6,057 nt of DNA, taken from the IMG/VR virus record IMGVR_UViG_3300045988_000161, positions 1 through 6,057 of that record. One strand, 5' to 3'. The notes beneath the pieces were generated by a model. That model had not been told where the DNA came from and searched no databases. It saw nothing but the letters and a program-made list of their open reading frames with translations. Made by a program: the position numbers and the translations under genes. This document shows positions 1,100 through 6,057 of this stretch, one piece after another; position 1 is the first letter of the stretch, and every line of letters begins with the position of its first letter. This stretch comes from a virus.

Positions 1100-2779
1100 T
1101 TAAACCATACGGTTAAATATATTATTAGCATCATTAAGTTTTTTGTGTTTAATCATGTCACGACAGAATGTAGAACTACGGTACCGCAGTTGCTCAAGGA
1201 GTAAAACCGTTTCACATGAAACATCTGACAAGACATCACGCTCCTGCCCGTCCTGAGGCAGCGCAAACATACAATCCGATATCTGTGGGTAAGAGGAGCG
1301 TAAGATGAATGCATCTCGTAAACTTTCATAATCTTTTTTCTTCTCATATTCTATGCCTGTTTTAATGATAAAATTAATACGACCGGAATAAGCACCAATA
1401 TCAGAACCGAAGTCAGGCAAATGCCAGTTACGGAAGAACTTAGAGACATATAAAAACAGCCTATATAACTTATTAATATAAGATTCAATATCGACATCGC
1501 TAGAACAGTTAACAAACCTAGTAAGACACCGAGAAGCATGTAATATAATCTTGTCATCATCGGTAAGAATAGAATTAACCTTGAGATACTTATAATAGGC
1601 ACGAACAAGACTCAGAATTGAATCCTGTTTATAATCAACGAATCCGAATTTCGCAATTCTTTTTGGCGTTGAATGTACAGCGCGAAGAACTCGAGCAATC
1701 GCAATACTATCGTCATTGCGAGCAGACGAGAATCGGGGCAATAATGAACGGATATACGACATGGGTGGAGTTGACCGAACACTGATGCCGTTGAAGTTAT
1801 AGACTCTTCCGTTAACGACAGAATCGATTTTTTGCTCAATCTGCGCATAAGGGTCTTTACCTTCCACGAAATCGCAACCTTTCTCAAAGAATCCAACAGA
1901 TGACCGCGATTTGGGTCTAAACGCGCGGCATGAGCGATATAGAAGGGGAGCAGCACTAAGGCTGTTAACGTAACTCGCAACGTACGACGAAGCTCCACCA
2001 GCGGAACGCTGGAAATCTGAACGACCGAGTTTCCAACTATTATCGTGACAGTATCGTAATACCTTAGAGACCTCTTTCGAGTTTGTGAATAATAAGAGAT
2101 GATAATGCGGGCGGAAATGGATGGGTCCATACTCTCCCACAGCGTAGAAATGTAACGTTTCATAAGAGCCTAATTGTTGAAATAAATGTTTACGTAAGCG
2201 TTTAATATAGTTCTGGACATCAACATAGTTTAAAAAGGGAATAAGATTATTACGACCGTATTGTTCAGAAGCGGAATAATCCGTTTTGTCAACGGCTTGC
2301 GTCTTATGAATAAAACTACGAATAGCATCCATACTAAGAAACCAATTATCCTTAACAGAAACATATTCCTTAATTTCACGGTCATACGGCACAGTGCCTT
2401 GAACCTGTTCGAAGAATATATGACGAAGCGCGTAGTTATCATTACATTGATATTCAGAAACAGGGATATACTGGTGATGTTCATAGCCAAAATAATTATC
2501 TCCTGAAATACCTAAGGCATCCTCATATTCACTATGAAGAACTTTACAATTCATAAGAGGAATATGAGCGTTGTCATAGGTCAGCGTTACAAAATAAGAG
2601 TACTTAAAAGCACTTCCTGCGGTCTTCACGCGCATGGACGCTTTTTTAGAACGCTTATGGATACAATAATCGCATTGACCACAATCCACGGCAAAACGTG
2701 CACCAGTGTACTTATTCGTGATAAACGAACGATACTGACAATGATCAACAGCCTTAAATAAATCAGGAGAAAATTTCAT
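1100..2779 (-). CDS. VP4: Replication initiation protein VP4 (HUH rolling-circle endonuclease), 559 aa from the ATG
   Basis: Track ORF 1100..2806, but its first codon (2806-2804) is TTG. The first ATG is at 2779-2777 (MKFSPDLF...), which I prefer as the start. Motifs read from the translation: a Cys cluster CGQCDYCIHKR; RCR motif I FVTLTY (nt 2593-2576); YIKRLRK...GEYGPIHFRPHYHLLLF with HUH motif II HYH (nt 2107-2099, cat tat cat); and motif III YVASYV with two Tyr residues. This arrangement is typical of Microviridae VP4/A-type initiators. Confidence 0.93.
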   Translation of the reverse strand: MKFSPDLFKAVDHCQYRSFITNKYTGARFAVDCGQCDYCIHKRSKKASMRVKTAGSAFKYSYFVTLTYDNAHIPLMNCKVLHSEYEDALGISGDNYFGYEHHQYIPVSEYQCNDNYALRHIFFEQVQGTVPYDREIKEYVSVKDNWFLSMDAIRSFIHKTQAVDKTDYSASEQYGRNNLIPFLNYVDVQNYIKRLRKHLFQQLGSYETLHFYAVGEYGPIHFRPHYHLLLFTNSKEVSKVLRYCHDNSWKLGRSDFQRSAGGASSYVASYVNSLSAAPLLYRSCRAFRPKSRSSVGFFEKGCDFVEGKDPYAQIEQKIDSVVNGRVYNFNGISVRSTPPMSYIRSLLPRFSSARNDDSIAIARVLRAVHSTPKRIAKFGFVDYKQDSILSLVRAYYKYLKVNSILTDDDKIILHASRCLTRFVNCSSDVDIESYINKLYRLFLYVSKFFRNWHLPDFGSDIGAYSGRINFIIKTGIEYEKKKDYESLRDAFILRSSYPQISDCMFALPQDGQERDVLSDVSCETVLLLEQLRYRSSTFCRDMIKHKKLNDANNIFNRMV

Positions 2780-2831
2780 ATAACCAAGAGCCTGCAGAGG
2801 CAACAAATATAAAAATAAACAATAAAGTCAA

Positions 2832-2915
2832 TCAAACACCAATAGCGCTAAGAATATAACCAAGAGCAGCAGACACGGCACCAATTACAATTTTCCAAAT
2901 ATTATTACGCTTCAT
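2832..2915 (-). CDS. Putative 27-aa single-pass membrane peptide (MKRNNIWKIVIGAVSAALGYILSAIGV)
   Basis: This is the C-terminal part of track ORF 2832..3056. An internal ATG lies at 2915-2913 and the stop TGA at 2834-2832. The peptide has a basic N-terminus (KR), then about 19 hydrophobic small-residue-rich positions (GAVSAALG). Third positions are T in 16 of 27 codons, like the confirmed genes. It overlaps the end of the 64-aa ORF by 11 nt and otherwise fills a gap before VP4 that would be non-coding. Confidence 0.4.
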   Translation of the reverse strand: MKRNNIWKIVIGAVSAALGYILSAIGV

Positions 2916-3099
2916 TGCTTTGAATTTTAATGTTAACAAAATCGCTTTCTTCTTTAATCGAATCCACAATAACAATAAGACCCAACGAAGAAATTCGTTC
3001 AGAATAATTTCCAAGGCCATCGAGAGAATTGACAATATAAGGCGAAATAACATCACGACCAGTAGTTTTTTCTTTAACTGAGATAATAAATTTTTGCAT
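2905..3099 (-). CDS. Hypothetical 64-aa protein, first ORF after the promoter
   Basis: Track ORF with ATG at 3099-3097 and stop TAA at 2907-2905. Its composition is balanced and non-repetitive (MQKFIISVKEKTTGRDVISPYIVNSLDGLGNYSERISSLGLIVIVDSIKEESDFVNIKIQSNEA). It is on the same strand as all other genes and about 45 nt downstream of the predicted promoter. I recognise no family. Confidence 0.55.
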   Translation of the reverse strand: MQKFIISVKEKTTGRDVISPYIVNSLDGLGNYSERISSLGLIVIVDSIKEESDFVNIKIQSNEA

Positions 3100-3148
3100 A
3101 ACTTTAAAATTTTAAAATATTAATAATAGTTATAACTCCTAACTGGGG

Positions 3149-3179
3149 CAAATATACAAACTATTTTTATAATTCCAAA
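3149..3179 (-). promoter_or_regulatory. Bacteroidetes-type promoter (-33 TTTG, 19-nt spacer, -7 TAnnTTTG)
   Basis: The minus strand reads ...tatTTTGgaattataaaaatagtttgTAtaTTTGcccc... The -33 TTTG is at 3179-3176, the spacer is exactly 19 nt, and the -7 TAtaTTTG is at 3156-3149. It sits in the AT-rich gene-free block 3100-3199, upstream of the first ORF of the single-strand gene train. Confidence 0.5.
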
Positions 3180-3199
3180 ATAAATCTCTTTTTTTTTAG

Positions 3200-3524
3200 A
3201 TTCTACCGTAGGGTGTGAGTTGTGCGTTTATGGACAAGGGATAGGAGAATCCGAGAGGATAACTCGGATTTGCTTCGCACACAACTAGGGGCTTCGCATA
3301 ATTATAAGGTCCTGGGAGAAAGACTTATTAACATAAATGTATAAAAAGGTGTATAGGCACGGCAAGGCAGGAGCTGTCTTGCCTTTGCGCGCCGTCGCGC
3401 TAAAATACCGGAGCGGAACGCTCCTATAAGGAAGTCGCTCCGCTCCATTTTTCGACCAGGCCCTACGCGGGCGGCGGATGTATATCGCTCAAACGCCGCG
3501 ATGGGCTTCTAGTCCTGAAGAATG
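3200..3524. other. GC-rich, hairpin-dense non-coding island (candidate complementary-strand origin, structured RNA, or attachment region)
   Basis: The track shows no ORF of 60 aa or more in gene orientation. By hand count 3361-3480 is 75/120 G+C (about 62%), against about 42% in a coding sample (4001-4060). Hairpins read directly: 3248-3255/3263-3270 (aatccgag/ctcggatt, 8 bp, 7-nt loop), nested in 3218-3226/3276-3286 (agttgtgcg/cgca[ca]caact, 9 bp with a 2-nt bulge). Also 3361-3370/3374-3383 (ggcaaggcag/ctgtcttgcc, 10 bp with one G-T), 3387-3391/3396-3400 (gcgcg/cgcgc), 3410-3415/3419-3424 (ggagcg/cgctcc) and 3471-3476/3494-3499 (gcggcg/cgccgc). Confidence 0.6.
3410..3452 (+). terminator. Intrinsic-terminator-like element on the strand antisense to the genes, with a competing upstream hairpin
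   Basis: ggagcgg (3410-3416) can pair with ccgctcc (3440-3446), and this is followed by aTTTTT (3447-3452). The same 5' arm can instead form the short hairpin ggagcg-gaa-cgctcc (3410-3424). On the gene strand the short hairpin is followed by ggtatttta, a weaker T-tract. Confidence 0.3.
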
Positions 3525-3683
3525 TTATTGCCTACCCAATTTAGGAATAATCTGGAACACACAACCAGAGATGTCTTGCTTGGCCTCATATTTACAGAAC
3601 CATTCTAAGGCATCATCCATAGATGTTACACACAATGAAAACACGACTTTACGTCCTTTTTTAATTCTTGCCTCGTAATACAT
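3525..3683 (-). CDS. Hypothetical 52-aa protein immediately downstream of VP2
   Basis: An internal ATG (3683-3681) of track ORF 3525..3737 lies 7 nt after the VP2 stop (TAG 3693-3691). Translation: MYYEARIKKGRKVVFSLCVTSMDDALEWFCKYEAKQDISGCVFQIIPKLGRQ, stop TAA at 3527-3525. The composition is non-repetitive and the ORF is in gene orientation. The upstream 18 codons of the track ORF (MHFLILLLLLRVLAVSKI) overlap VP2 in its +1 frame and look spurious. Confidence 0.45.
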   Translation of the reverse strand: MYYEARIKKGRKVVFSLCVTSMDDALEWFCKYEAKQDISGCVFQIIPKLGRQ

Positions 3684-3690
3684 AATTTTA

Positions 3691-4854
3691 CTAACGGCCA
3701 AAACCCTTAATAGGAGCAGGAGAATTAGGAAATGCACGCTTAAGAGTACCTACAGTATTTCCTGTGCCAGTAAATATACGAGTACCATAATCTAGAGTGT
3801 TACGCAATTCATAAGTATTGACATCCTTCTGTTTCTCCTTAGCAGACCATCTATAATAGTCACGCAAAGCCTTTTCTTTAGAAAACTCAATATTCTTAAG
3901 GGTATTAGTATTCTTCGAATCCCAGAGAGAAGAGAGACCACGAGCACGATTAGCCTGAATATTAGCATAAATCAATGAATCAGCTGTTTCCTCAGCTATT
4001 CTGTTTTGAATCCTAAGACCGTTAGTCTCAACAGACAACTTAACAGCCTTAGCCATCTCAGTTTTATACTGTGCTTCAGTAAGGGCACCTTGAGCATACA
4101 AGTTAGCCAAAGTCTGACCTTTAATAAACAAATCAGCCTGCTGTTGTTCATCAAGATATTTATTCAATATCTGTTGGGCTTCAGCATCCAAAAGTATTTG
4201 AGCTTCTTGAGCTTGAGTAAGACGACCGGCAAACTCCATATTCTTGAGTTCTTGATACTCCTTGGACTGGTCCAACAACGCAGACTCCCGACCAGTACTT
4301 TTACTCCAATAACCAGACTCACCAACAGCAATATTACGATAATCAGTAGCACCTCGAATCTGGTCAATCTTATACGGAGTAAGAGAAGCATTCTGCTCAG
4401 CATTAAGCATCGCCGCACGGGCTTGAGCCATGGAAGCAAGAGCAGAACCAACATCAGAAAAATCGGGACGAAATGCCTGCAAGCTAGGAGAAGTAGCAGC
4501 AGTAGCAGAAGCACCACCTGAAGCCGGAGACCTAGAACCAGCCATAGCGGCAGAACCTTGAACAAACGGATTCAAGCCACGGGAAATCATTGCATTGGGG
4601 GAATTATAGGAATTATTCATCCCCCACATTTTTTCTTGCCAATCTCGTTGAATTTGAGATTGCTCGGCATTAAATGCGTTATTCTCGCGGTTAATATCAA
4701 TACTAGTCTGGTTGGTCTTATTCTGAGACGATGCACCAATAGCATTACCAGCAAGAGATGCGCCAGCAGCAATAATACCACCAAGAACAAGAGGAGCAAT
4801 ATGCTTTTCGGAATGCCCCATTAAGGGGCTTTCTCCAATATCATAGAATTTCAT
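3691..4854 (-). CDS. VP2: Minor capsid / DNA pilot protein VP2 (H-like), 387 aa
   Basis: Track ORF with ATG at 4854-4852. It has an N-terminal Gly/Ala-rich hydrophobic segment (LVLGGIIAAGASLAGNAIGASS). This is followed by NRENNAFNAEQSQIQRDWQEKMWGMNNSYNSPNAMISRGLNPFV, the N..F...E.....R.WQE.M...Y.SP......GLNP block I associate with Microviridae VP2. A long Gln/Ala/Glu-rich helical region follows. The start overlaps the upstream stop as ATGA (4854-4851). Confidence 0.88.
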   Translation of the reverse strand: MKFYDIGESPLMGHSEKHIAPLVLGGIIAAGASLAGNAIGASSQNKTNQTSIDINRENNAFNAEQSQIQRDWQEKMWGMNNSYNSPNAMISRGLNPFVQGSAAMAGSRSPASGGASATAATSPSLQAFRPDFSDVGSALASMAQARAAMLNAEQNASLTPYKIDQIRGATDYRNIAVGESGYWSKSTGRESALLDQSKEYQELKNMEFAGRLTQAQEAQILLDAEAQQILNKYLDEQQQADLFIKGQTLANLYAQGALTEAQYKTEMAKAVKLSVETNGLRIQNRIAEETADSLIYANIQANRARGLSSLWDSKNTNTLKNIEFSKEKALRDYYRWSAKEKQKDVNTYELRNTLDYGTRIFTGTGNTVGTLKRAFPNSPAPIKGFGR

Positions 4855-5306: not shown

Positions 5307-6057
5307 TTAATAGGGTAAACCATTTCTATCCAAGTTCTGAACAGCATATACTTGAAAATTAACATTACACAACAACTGGTCAAATGCAACAGAGCAATTA
5401 GAAGAATCAACCTGAGGAACGAATATAGAGTTCAACTGTTGGGGGCGGACCTTCATGGATTGATAAGACCAAGAACCGGAAGAAGTCAACACCTGCCAGC
5501 CGTCAAGAGGAGCAACCCAAGATTGATAAGCAGCACCAGCACGAAATCCAGCGTGAACAGTATCAATATTAGATTTCCACTGCCAATAACGAAGATTGTA
5601 GCCAAGAGAACCGGAAACAGCACGACCCGGATTATTCTGAAGATTCAGAGCAGGGACAGCTTGCATGCCAAGTTGGTCAAATGCAGGTTGCGGAAAATCA
5701 GAAATAGCAGTCACAGTCAATTGAGGATTCTGACCGGTCAGATTCCAATCCAACATAGGTACAGCGTGATATACACACATAATCACCTGATGTTCAGCGC
5801 CACAATTATAAGTAATAGTATGTCCAGAGTTACTAGATACACCTTTACCAGCAATAGAGGCCTGTGAAGAATCGGTATCAAGATTAGTATTAACTACTTC
5901 ATTAATATTGATGACACTAGACCAACCACCAATATAATGTGCATGATTGCCCATGTACTCAGGAGCTTTAATACCAAACTGGGCAGCCATTTGGTCAGAA
6001 TAATCCTTACTACTGAATTGTACTACTTCTTTCCAGCGCTGAAGATACTCTGTTGCA
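5307..6057 (-). CDS. VP1: Major capsid protein VP1, 3'/C-terminal part (5959-6057 duplicates 1-99)
   Basis: Track ORF 5307..5990 (MAAQFGIKAPEYMGNHAHYIGGW...NLDRNGLPY, stop TAA at 5309-5307) begins at an internal Met. The frame stays open upstream to the window end and joins the 1-1082 segment through the 5958-nt circle. Confidence 0.93.
   Translation of the reverse strand, partial: ATEYLQRWKEVVQFSSKDYSDQMAAQFGIKAPEYMGNHAHYIGGWSSVININEVVNTNLDTDSSQASIAGKGVSSNSGHTITYNCGAEHQVIMCVYHAVPMLDWNLTGQNPQLTVTAISDFPQPAFDQLGMQAVPALNLQNNPGRAVSGSLGYNLRYWQWKSNIDTVHAGFRAGAAYQSWVAPLDGWQVLTSSGSWSYQSMKVRPQQLNSIFVPQVDSSNCSVAFDQLLCNVNFQVYAVQNLDRNGLPY
5959..6057. repeat. Terminal direct repeat, copy 2 (circular-genome closure overlap)
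   Basis: Exact copy of 1-99. The repeat runs to the last base of the window, as expected for an assembler overlap on a circular molecule. Confidence 0.97.

Follow-up and report, generated by a model that had tools for sequence, protein, structure and literature searches.

A two-module structured island of packaged-strand DNA in a Bacteroidales-type microvirus and its possible role as a complementary-strand origin

Introduction

The IMG/VR virus record IMGVR_UViG_3300045988_000161 provides a stretch of 6,057 nucleotides (nt), here called the window, which comprises the circular 5958-nt genome of a microvirus with bases 1-99 recurring at 5959-6057. All recognisable genes (those for the major capsid protein, the pilot protein and the replication initiator Rep) are carried by the minus strand of the window. 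To our knowledge, the packaged strand is the coding strand in all known Microviridae, and the minus strand is therefore taken to be the packaged viral strand. The subject of this report is an intergenic island at 3211-3521, which is non-coding, GC-rich and built from two modules, D1 (3211-3302, minus strand) and D2 (3346-3521, minus strand), that are joined by a disposable linker (3300-3345).

Complementary-strand origins formed by hairpins are textbook knowledge for G4, phiX174, f1 and the rolling-circle plasmids. In the literature that we searched, no replication origin is described for any microvirus outside the phiX174/G4 group. The initial annotation of this DNA had stated that an element of this kind was uncharacterised in Bacteroidales-type microviruses, and this agrees with our searches, which returned no description of the island, of D1 or of an origin in these viruses, and no Rfam family. 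The aspects that are new here are the size and two-module build of the island, the deep conservation of D1, a mini-hairpin rule that extends across the family, and a wobble test that assigns the structure to DNA.

Results

Extent, coding potential and conservation of the island

The region had been described initially as a gene-free stretch, the only sizeable one of the genome, and comparison with relatives bears this out. The gap 3100-3524 contains no open reading frame (ORF) that is maintained among relatives, and in 117 distinct relatives no frame remains open through the island. The gap differs in length by 1-2 nt, and the modules range among relatives from 88 to 91 nt for D1 and from 163 to 176 nt for D2, variation that would break any frame. 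The contrast in base composition was reproduced as well, with a GC content of 62.5% at 3361-3480 and of 39.9% for the genome. Coding sequences labelled 'hypothetical protein' in PP511330, PP511392 and OP549867 span the structured element or a D1 homologue (L146 3581-3784, L007 1293-1619 and L003 999-1295), and are probably annotation artefacts.

The island was found in 34 GenBank microviruses, approximately 130 IMG/VR genomes and at least 120 metagenome contigs, many of them labelled as human gut. Over 119 complete genomes, identity to the window is 88.7% for D1 (3211-3299) and 88.9% for D2 (3346-3521), and 75-85% for the genes. The two modules are the most conserved sequence of the genome, above the genes, and such conservation is as expected for sequences under constraint from host machinery. 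The variable linker between them retains ~40% identity and is missing or swapped for other inserts in relatives. It is a hot spot for inserts (columns 101-245 of alignment A2; L028, L075, L047, L053, L094, L100, L102, L112 and L144), one type of which consists of 1-3 tandem copies of TAAGTCCTGGACTTGACAAAGTG, holding the palindrome AAGTCC-T-GGACTT, and a second of GTCCTAGATCCATTACTAATAGATCCAGG. The sequence GTCCTRG is common to all linker inserts and to the 3' tail of the island (TAGTCCTGAAG, 3510-3520).

Helices and compensatory changes

Both strands of the island fold better than dinucleotide shuffles, with z scores for RNA of -3.4 (plus) and -4.0 (minus) and for DNA of -4.2 (plus) and -5.3 (minus). 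Support for individual helices was drawn from mutual information and helix-by-helix pair counts over 117 distinct sequences, and from a double-change test on 47 representatives; RNAalifold applied to the whole island on MAFFT alignments produced poor, strand-biased structures. Ten short helices (H1, H2, m1, m2, H4, H5, H6A, S1, S2 and H7), all of them local, are backed by compensatory changes. Covariation among relatives, which had been proposed as the check on the hairpins, is clearly present: in the 47 representatives 98.3% of the pair cells are paired, and 20 of the 48 pairs change on both sides. Double-change cells number 181, compared with 57±10 in column shuffles (none of 500 reached 181) and 7-22 when the partner was slid. 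Compensatory counts by parsimony (146 state changes, 15 pairs) are probably inflated by recombination and were not taken as event counts.

All features described here and below for D1 and D2 lie on the minus strand. D1 folds as a three-way junction of mini-hairpin m2, closing helix H1, mini-hairpin m1, hairpin H2 and a conserved single-stranded tract, and the nested hairpin recognised at the outset (3218-3286) corresponds to H2 inside H1. The closing helix H1 (3218-3224 with 3280-3286) has 816 Watson-Crick cells, one G-T and two A-C, and three of its pairs covary. In H2 (3248-3255 with 3263-3270), six of the eight pairs change on both sides, with stem variants CCGAG/CTCGG, TTGAG/CTCAA and CCAAG/CTTGG across relatives, and the viral-strand loop TTATCCT is nearly invariant. 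Mini-hairpin m1 (3271-3273 with 3277-3279) reads T-GCGAAGC-A on the viral strand, with a C-GAA-G core; its outer pair is GC in 70 sequences, CG in 38 and AT in 8, and its loop is GAA in 87, GAAA in 14, GGA in 5, and GTA and GTAA in one each, deviating in 7 of 115. Mini-hairpin m2 (3291-3292 with 3296-3297) is GCGAAGC in 110 sequences, GCGGAGC in 5 and ACGAAGT in 1. The single-stranded tract (3225-3238), which reads CTTGTCCATAAACG on the viral strand, carries CTTGTC in 99 of 117 sequences and CTCGTC in 18, and is a candidate initiation or nick site.

D2 is a clade-specific array of GC-rich hairpins. It begins with the three tandem hairpins noted previously at 3361-3424, here named H4, H5 and H6A. 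H4 pairs 3361-3366 with 3378-3383 around a variable inner part, H5 (3389-3392 with 3397-3400) is Watson-Crick in 468 of 468 cells, and H6A (3410-3415 with 3419-3424) reads GGAGCG-TTC-CGCTCC and is followed by GGTATTTTAG. One subclade has this 15-nt hairpin swapped for GCGAAGC or GCGTAGC. One pair covaries in H6B, a longer alternative to H6A that joins 3410-3416 to 3440-3446; H6A, H6B and mini-hairpin m3 are mutually exclusive. The latter (3437-3443) is GCGGAGC in 105 of 117 sequences and GCGAAGC in 12, inside the invariant block GTCGCTCCGCTCC, so that its middle loop base is the sole variable position. S1 (3460-3463 with 3469-3472) and S2 (3466-3468 with 3474-3476) are Watson-Crick in all cells, with pair 3463-3469 of S1 being CG in 113 and TA in 4 sequences and pair 3466-3476 of S2 being CG in 108, TA in 6 and GC in 3; they overlap in a manner that resembles a very tight pseudoknot, and may form either together or alternately. 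In the last hairpin, H7 (3484-3488 with 3498-3502), pair 3487-3499 is GC in 99, AT in 12 and CG in 4. A viral-strand CTG (3457-3459) directly 3' of S1 is present in 113 of the 117 sequences, and a box ATACA(C/T)C lies directly 3' of H7 on the viral strand (3477-3483, kept in 116 of 117), with a second copy 3' of H4 (3348-3354, kept in 88 of 117).

Other proposed pairings fail and were not retained. A long-range closing pair between 3207-3213 and 3461-3467, suggested at the start, is Watson-Crick in 31-67 of the 117 sequences at four of its seven positions and has no compensation. The G-U-rich helices drawn by RNAalifold (3348-3352/3405-3409, 3454-3456/3512-3514, 3458-3463/3503-3508, 3466-3470/3496-3500 and 3211-3215/3295-3299) were dropped for want of double compensation.

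Wobble pairs, loop motifs and the active strand

Across the supported helices, the 117 unique sequences hold ~5290 Watson-Crick cells, 14 G-T and 15 A-C, and the 47 representatives show 14 one-sided changes against the 181 double changes. Base pairs flip between A-T and G-C without intermediates at pair 3391-3398 of H5 (88 AT, 29 GC), pair 3365-3379 of H4 (62 AT, 55 GC, no wobble) and pair 3411-3423 of H6A (40 AT, 72 GC). In functional RNAs, G-U pairs are nearly neutral and common. Since RNA helices normally tolerate G-U, and wobble is near-absent here on both strands, the pairing appears to operate at the level of DNA. Two individual G-T pairs had previously been cited as a weak indication that the plus strand was the functional one, and neither stands: the position g3367-t3377 is T-A in 51 sequences, G-T in 47 and mostly mismatched in the remainder, and g3247-t3271 is probably unpaired, as t3271 pairs with a3279 in 117 of 117 sequences.

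The loops carry a strand-specific signature. On the minus strand m1, m2 and m3 obey the rule xC-GNA-Gx' (GCGAAGC twice and GCGGAGC once), the loop variants GAA, GGA, GTA, GAAA and GTAA hold the G and the A constant while the middle varies, and four of the hairpins have 3-nt loops. Mini-hairpins of the types d(GCGNAGC) and d(GCGNNAGC) are extraordinarily stable as DNA and far less so as RNA, and are poorly bound by single-stranded DNA-binding protein (SSB) [PMC13037366]. Members of this class occur at the G4 primer site (GCGAAAGC), at the St-1 and alpha3 primer sites (GCGTTAGC), in RSF1010 ssiA (CCGAAGG) and in N4 promoters (GCGGAGC) [PMC13037366]. In the G4 record GCGAAAGC falls within the annotated primer at 3970-3997, and it was recovered at 3977 as the positive control of our motif scan.

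Because Watson-Crick-only helices are combined with strand-specific C-GNA-G loops on the minus strand, we read the island as structured viral-strand DNA and not as RNA. Action on the antisense (window plus) strand, as weakly favoured in the initial annotation, finds no support in the equal rarity of wobble on both strands and the location of the loop motif on the minus strand, and the structured RNA offered there as an alternative is disfavoured by the lack of an Rfam match and of G-U tolerance. The best match in the Rfam search, mir-383, scored 21.9 bits (gathering score 70), two others were also far below threshold, and a search for tRNA and tmRNA genes found none.

Distant homologues of D1

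Identity of Rep is at least 58% within the clade and falls sharply to 30% or less in the next relatives, and a search for related loci by Rep alignment returned the close clade alone. No significant match was obtained when the island was compared by blastn with distant intergenic regions, and the homologues of D1 were revealed only by a covariance model, R1, which was built on the viral strand and has 92 positions and 20 pairs. Seven relatives in which Rep is at most 30% identical keep the gene order capsid-scaffold-pilot-gap-small ORFs-Rep, and R1 matches a full-length D1 in all seven (E values from 2e-10 to 0.07). A set of 100 loci retrieved through the loose pattern CCCGAAGGG...CTTGTC, mostly from unrelated phages, served as a negative control for the model, and in this set R1 also recognised D1 in another seven genomes, each 6.2-6.6 kb in size. 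The Rep identity of 30% or less was thus measured for seven of the 14 distant D1-bearing microviruses. R1 gives a single significant match per genome, on the coding strand in all 14, and no other match at E≤0.01 across the 0.84 Mb searched, including 93 unrelated loci. D1 is ancient and is always on the coding strand.

The deep alignment of D1 keeps m2, H1, m1, H2, a pyrimidine-rich spacer, and a single-stranded CTYGYC followed by an AT-rich stretch. It is paired in 99.2% of cells, 18 of the 20 pairs change on both sides, and 79 double-change cells stand against one G-U cell in 237. The seven distant gaps have 28 mini-hairpin motifs on the viral strand as against 4 on its complement, and dinucleotide shuffles give 3.7±1.8 (maximum 11 in 1000); 23 of 31 loops are 3-nt GNA, and the arrays hold 3-6 mini-hairpins per gap over up to ~330 nt. 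A further candidate for a general signal, the motif CCnATCCnTTG, was set aside as it is present in the window and L146 alone.

Homology of D2 is confined to the clade. Its covariance model, R2, scores 213 bits in the window and at most 8 bits in distant microviruses and G4, where none of its matches is significant. A box A(T/A)ACA(C/T)C, which was noticed post hoc, adjoins the 3' side of a hairpin in five of the seven distant gaps, and in three of these CTG comes two bases after it. These are L146 (3489-3513), L145 (3846-3870) and L150 (3664-3688), where a hairpin tipped with GCGTAGC or GCGAAGC is followed by A(T/A)ACACC, two bases and CTG. The heptamer CCTACTG of L146 is also the heptamer at the G4 primer start (G4 3992-3998).

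Neighbouring genes, promoter and host

On the Rep side of the island, a Bacteroidetes-type promoter (TTTG-N19-TATATTTG) is predicted by pattern match at 3149-3179 on the minus strand, where it precedes the small ORFs and Rep; the same pattern occurs in three distant genomes in the same relative place. A pattern search in either orientation detected no promoter of this type for the island itself. Rep has 568 residues (1103-2806, minus strand), and its match to the replication-initiator family is confined to residues 31-281, no function being assigned to its C-terminal half. Between the pilot gene and the island, the minus strand encodes an ORF of 52 residues (3525-3683) that has no PHROG match and may be an accessory gene. 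Only 7% of related genomes can be aligned over 3522-3690, and Dulem viruses 254 and 255 have an ORF of 153 nt at the equivalent position.

In GenBank, the nearest records are of microviruses sampled from faeces (dog and lemur), from lemur saliva and from a human vaginal sample. Four contigs with similarity to the island (L082, L091, L192 and L227) are not viruses but type I-C loci of clustered regularly interspaced short palindromic repeats (CRISPR), with spacers against the window genome. The CRISPR regions lie at 11800-12500 of L082, in L091, at 4300-4800 of L227 and at 3200-5900 of L192, and have the repeat GTCACACCCTACGTGGGTGTGTGGATTGAAAC in common. At least 18 spacers of L192 match the window, three of them inside the island. 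L082 holds cas5c, cas8c, cas7 and cas1c, and the Cas8c encoded beside its array shares 84-87% identity with proteins from Bacteroides, Phocaeicola and Parabacteroides distasonis. The repeat had no match in a scan of the species genome collection, and the host was taken instead from the Cas8c homologues. Judged by the spacers together with these homologues, the host is a Bacteroidales bacterium, and the initial assignment to the Bacteroidales-type microviruses holds. The 11-mer GTAGGGTGTGA is common to the CRISPR repeat of L082 and the start of the island (3207-3217); this sharing is probably due to chance, with ~0.06 such matches expected and relatives reading TAGAGTGTGA there.

Discussion

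Possible function as a complementary-strand origin

Our favoured reading is that the island is a complementary-strand origin, that is, a cis-acting replication region formed by folded single-stranded DNA of the packaged strand, and we assign it a probability of roughly one half. It is favoured by the DNA-level pairing, by the presence on the viral strand of mini-hairpins of a kind linked to priming sites and their enrichment in distant clades, by a conservation that is independent of the divergence of Rep (as in plasmid single-strand origins), and by the CTG beside a GC-rich stem; in addition, no competing identity was found. A complementary-strand initiation site comparable to those of G4 and phiX174 had been the leading proposal of the initial annotation, and the comparative evidence favours this part of it, with the viral strand taking the place of the antisense strand. 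The identity of the folded DNA as the site of priming, the enzyme concerned and the start of the primer are all points that we infer.

Under this reading, host SSB would coat the naked viral strand after injection, and very stable hairpins, including the three GNA mini-hairpins that resist both melting and SSB, would remain folded. These hairpins would offer single strands at fixed positions, namely CTTGTCCATAAACG in D1 and the ATACACC boxes and the CTG beside GC-rich stems in D2. The host priming machinery would then read them, perhaps through direct recognition by primase, for which the G4 origin is the precedent; RNA polymerase is a less likely reader. The primer so made would allow synthesis of the complementary strand and formation of the double-stranded replicative form. 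The G4 record has its start CTG at a distance of 3 nt from hairpin I, on the 3' side, and by analogy the CTG beside S1 may be its counterpart.

Several considerations weigh against a complementary-strand origin. The link to priming is drawn from comparative evidence, and an equal rarity of G-T and A-C pairs could likewise be expected of hairpins extruded from the double-stranded replicative form, in which both strands fold. D1, as a single-copy viral-strand hairpin with a single-stranded CTYG tract, would also suit a nick site for Rep. In the phiX174 group the viral-strand origin is conserved and the complementary-strand origin is variable, and by this analogy the deep conservation of D1 would favour a viral-strand (+) origin. 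Similarity to the G4 origin is absent, as blastn-short returned chance matches of 9-13 nt and neither R1 nor R2 had a significant match in G4. CTG is the start trinucleotide of G4 and may not be that of a Bacteroidales primase. Finally, at ~310 nt and with ten helices the island is far larger than the ~136-nt F-G intergenic region of G4 that holds its origin.

A more far-reaching possibility, which we put forward only tentatively and consider less probable than the origin function itself, is that D1 represents a widespread and undescribed class of initiation signal in single-stranded DNA. Such a signal would comprise a 92-nt three-way junction with two GNA mini-hairpins and a CTYGYC tract, would be read directly by the Bacteroidales primase with no need for a PriA primosome, and would have been kept throughout the infection of this host group, with clade-specific arrays such as D2 serving to tune it.

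Comparison with known systems

The complementary-strand origins (oric) of G4, St-1, alpha3 and phiK resemble the island in being intergenic in a microvirus, in consisting of packaged-strand hairpins, in containing a GCGN(N)AGC mini-hairpin, and in having CTG just 3' of a GC-rich hairpin. They differ in sequence, with no similarity by alignment or covariance model; in build, with approximately three hairpins in a 136-nt gap in G4 and ten helices in two modules over ~310 nt here; in location, which is between F and G in G4 and between the pilot gene and the early promoter here; and in host, as the primase of a Bacteroidales bacterium may have a different specificity. The PriA site at which the phiX174 primosome assembles is a single hairpin of ~55 nt with no sequence consensus.

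Orientation-specific priming signals in folded single-stranded DNA are also found in RSF1010 (ssiA and ssiB) and in the single-strand origins (sso) of rolling-circle plasmids. The sso elements are conserved independently of the accompanying Rep, a behaviour to which that of D1 can be likened. The mini-hairpin of ssiA, CCGAAGG, recurs as m1 in 27 of 115 relatives, although ssiA is only 40 nt long and is read by a plasmid-encoded primase. The intergenic region of f1/M13 is, like the island, several hundred nucleotides of non-coding DNA with several packaged-strand hairpins and cis-acting replication signals. RNA polymerase and the gene II protein act on the f1 signals, among which there is also one for packaging, whereas no mimic of a Bacteroidetes sigma factor promoter was found in the island. 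Among microviruses, predicted DNA hairpins upstream of Rep that show compensatory substitutions and are candidates for negative-strand initiation have been reported for the reekeekee- and roodoodooviruses [PMC9865509]. In those unrelated, very small microviruses the hairpins number one or two and measure 13-64 nt, and their description includes no mini-hairpin rule, wobble test or covariance model [PMC9865509].

Alternative explanations

The closest competitor to the complementary-strand origin is a viral-strand (+) origin, in D1 or in the whole island, at which Rep (VP4) would nick the tract CTYG|YC on the displaced strand or after extrusion from the supercoiled replicative form. D1 has properties that would suit it, being single-copy, deeply conserved and always on the coding strand, and the lack of wobble on either strand is what would be expected if both strands fold during cruciform extrusion. 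HUH endonucleases typically cut single-stranded DNA beside a hairpin, a habit that the architecture of D1 would accommodate. The viral-strand origin of phiX174 and G4 is a 30-bp unstructured sequence inside gene A. Like D1, it is a cis-acting replication signal of the same virus family, and the single strand of D1 begins with CTTG, the core of the G4 origin CAACTTG|ATA (G4 500-519). The resemblance stops at these 4 nt, as no phiX174-type origin is found in the window within 3 mismatches; an occurrence of CTTGATA in the capsid gene was rejected as a (+) origin as its Leu codon varies between CTT, CTC and TTG. The clade-variable D2, in which GC hairpins are followed by CTG, is more like the G4 complementary-strand origin, and both kinds of origin could be present together, the (+) origin in D1 and the complementary-strand one in D2, in the manner of the f1 intergenic region. 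We regard a (+) origin as rather unlikely, since the shape of D1 is kept while Rep diverges to 30% identity or less, which fits constraint by the host better than co-evolution with Rep, and a nick site needs no array of 3-6 mini-hairpins over ~330 nt. Furthermore, the known links of GNA mini-hairpins are to priming and polymerase entry and not to HUH nick sites [PMC13037366].

Transcription of the island into a functional RNA accounts for less of the data. As a sense RNA it would form the structured 3' end of the late (VP1-VP3-VP2) transcript, with a role in termination and in protection from exonucleases. The island does lie directly downstream of the late genes, and a terminator scan by pattern match picked out a single terminator-like site in 2700-3900, namely H6A with the GGTATTTTAG that follows it on the minus strand, which takes up 25 nt of the island. 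H6 sits between AAAA (3402-3405) and TTTTT (3448-3452), as would an intrinsic terminator working in both directions, at a point that separates the late genes from the early promoter, and C-GNRA-G tetraloops (GAAA and GTAA) are among the loop variants. A sense-strand RNA role is possible for part of D2, through termination at H6A and its T-run, but it does not explain the whole island. D1 is situated past the terminator-like site and ahead of the next promoter, G-U pairs (plus-strand A-C) are no more frequent than the opposite mismatch (15 in ~5300 cells, and the single cell in 237 of the deep alignment), the predominant 3-nt GNA loops (23 of 31) are exceptionally stable in DNA and not in RNA [PMC13037366], no Rfam family matches, and a terminator or stabiliser leaves the invariant single-stranded tracts and the conservation above that of genes unexplained. 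We therefore think a sense RNA improbable as the identity of the island, and an antisense RNA of the plus strand highly improbable. The latter would be in line with the better folding of the plus strand than of shuffles (z -3.35) and with the G-U-containing helices that RNAalifold can add on that strand; these added helices lack double compensation, both G-T pairs cited for it fail, the loop motif rule belongs to the other strand, there is no Rfam match, and no Bacteroidetes-type promoter was seen by eye upstream on the plus strand, with the pattern search finding sense-strand ones only. An equally remote explanation casts the island as an attachment region of Xer-type integration with a CTXphi-like fold. 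Krupovic and Forterre proposed Xer-type integration for Bacteroidetes proviruses and described dif-like attachment sites upstream of Rep in related proviruses, in dif-like pairs recalling CTXphi [PMC3091885]. In the window, the 28-bp dif consensus is unmatched within 3 mismatches. The invariant block of D1 is absent from 185,579 species genomes, and its carriers are free genomes of ~6 kb or concatemers, the exceptions (L082, L091, L192 and L227) being CRISPR arrays in which it is a spacer. The attachment region that had been listed as an alternative is thus not borne out, there being no dif-like site and no integrated copy in these species genomes or in the at least 120 metagenome contigs.

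Significance

Gut samples from humans and animals are rich in microviruses of this type, and the R1 covariance model recognises these phages by non-coding DNA alone. The near-absence of wobble pairs can serve to tell DNA-level from RNA-level structure in comparative data. The island offers mutable targets in the form of a 92-nt module common to very distant genomes, hairpins that can be broken and restored, and candidate start or nick sequences, and a working origin would be of use for building single-stranded DNA vectors for Bacteroides.

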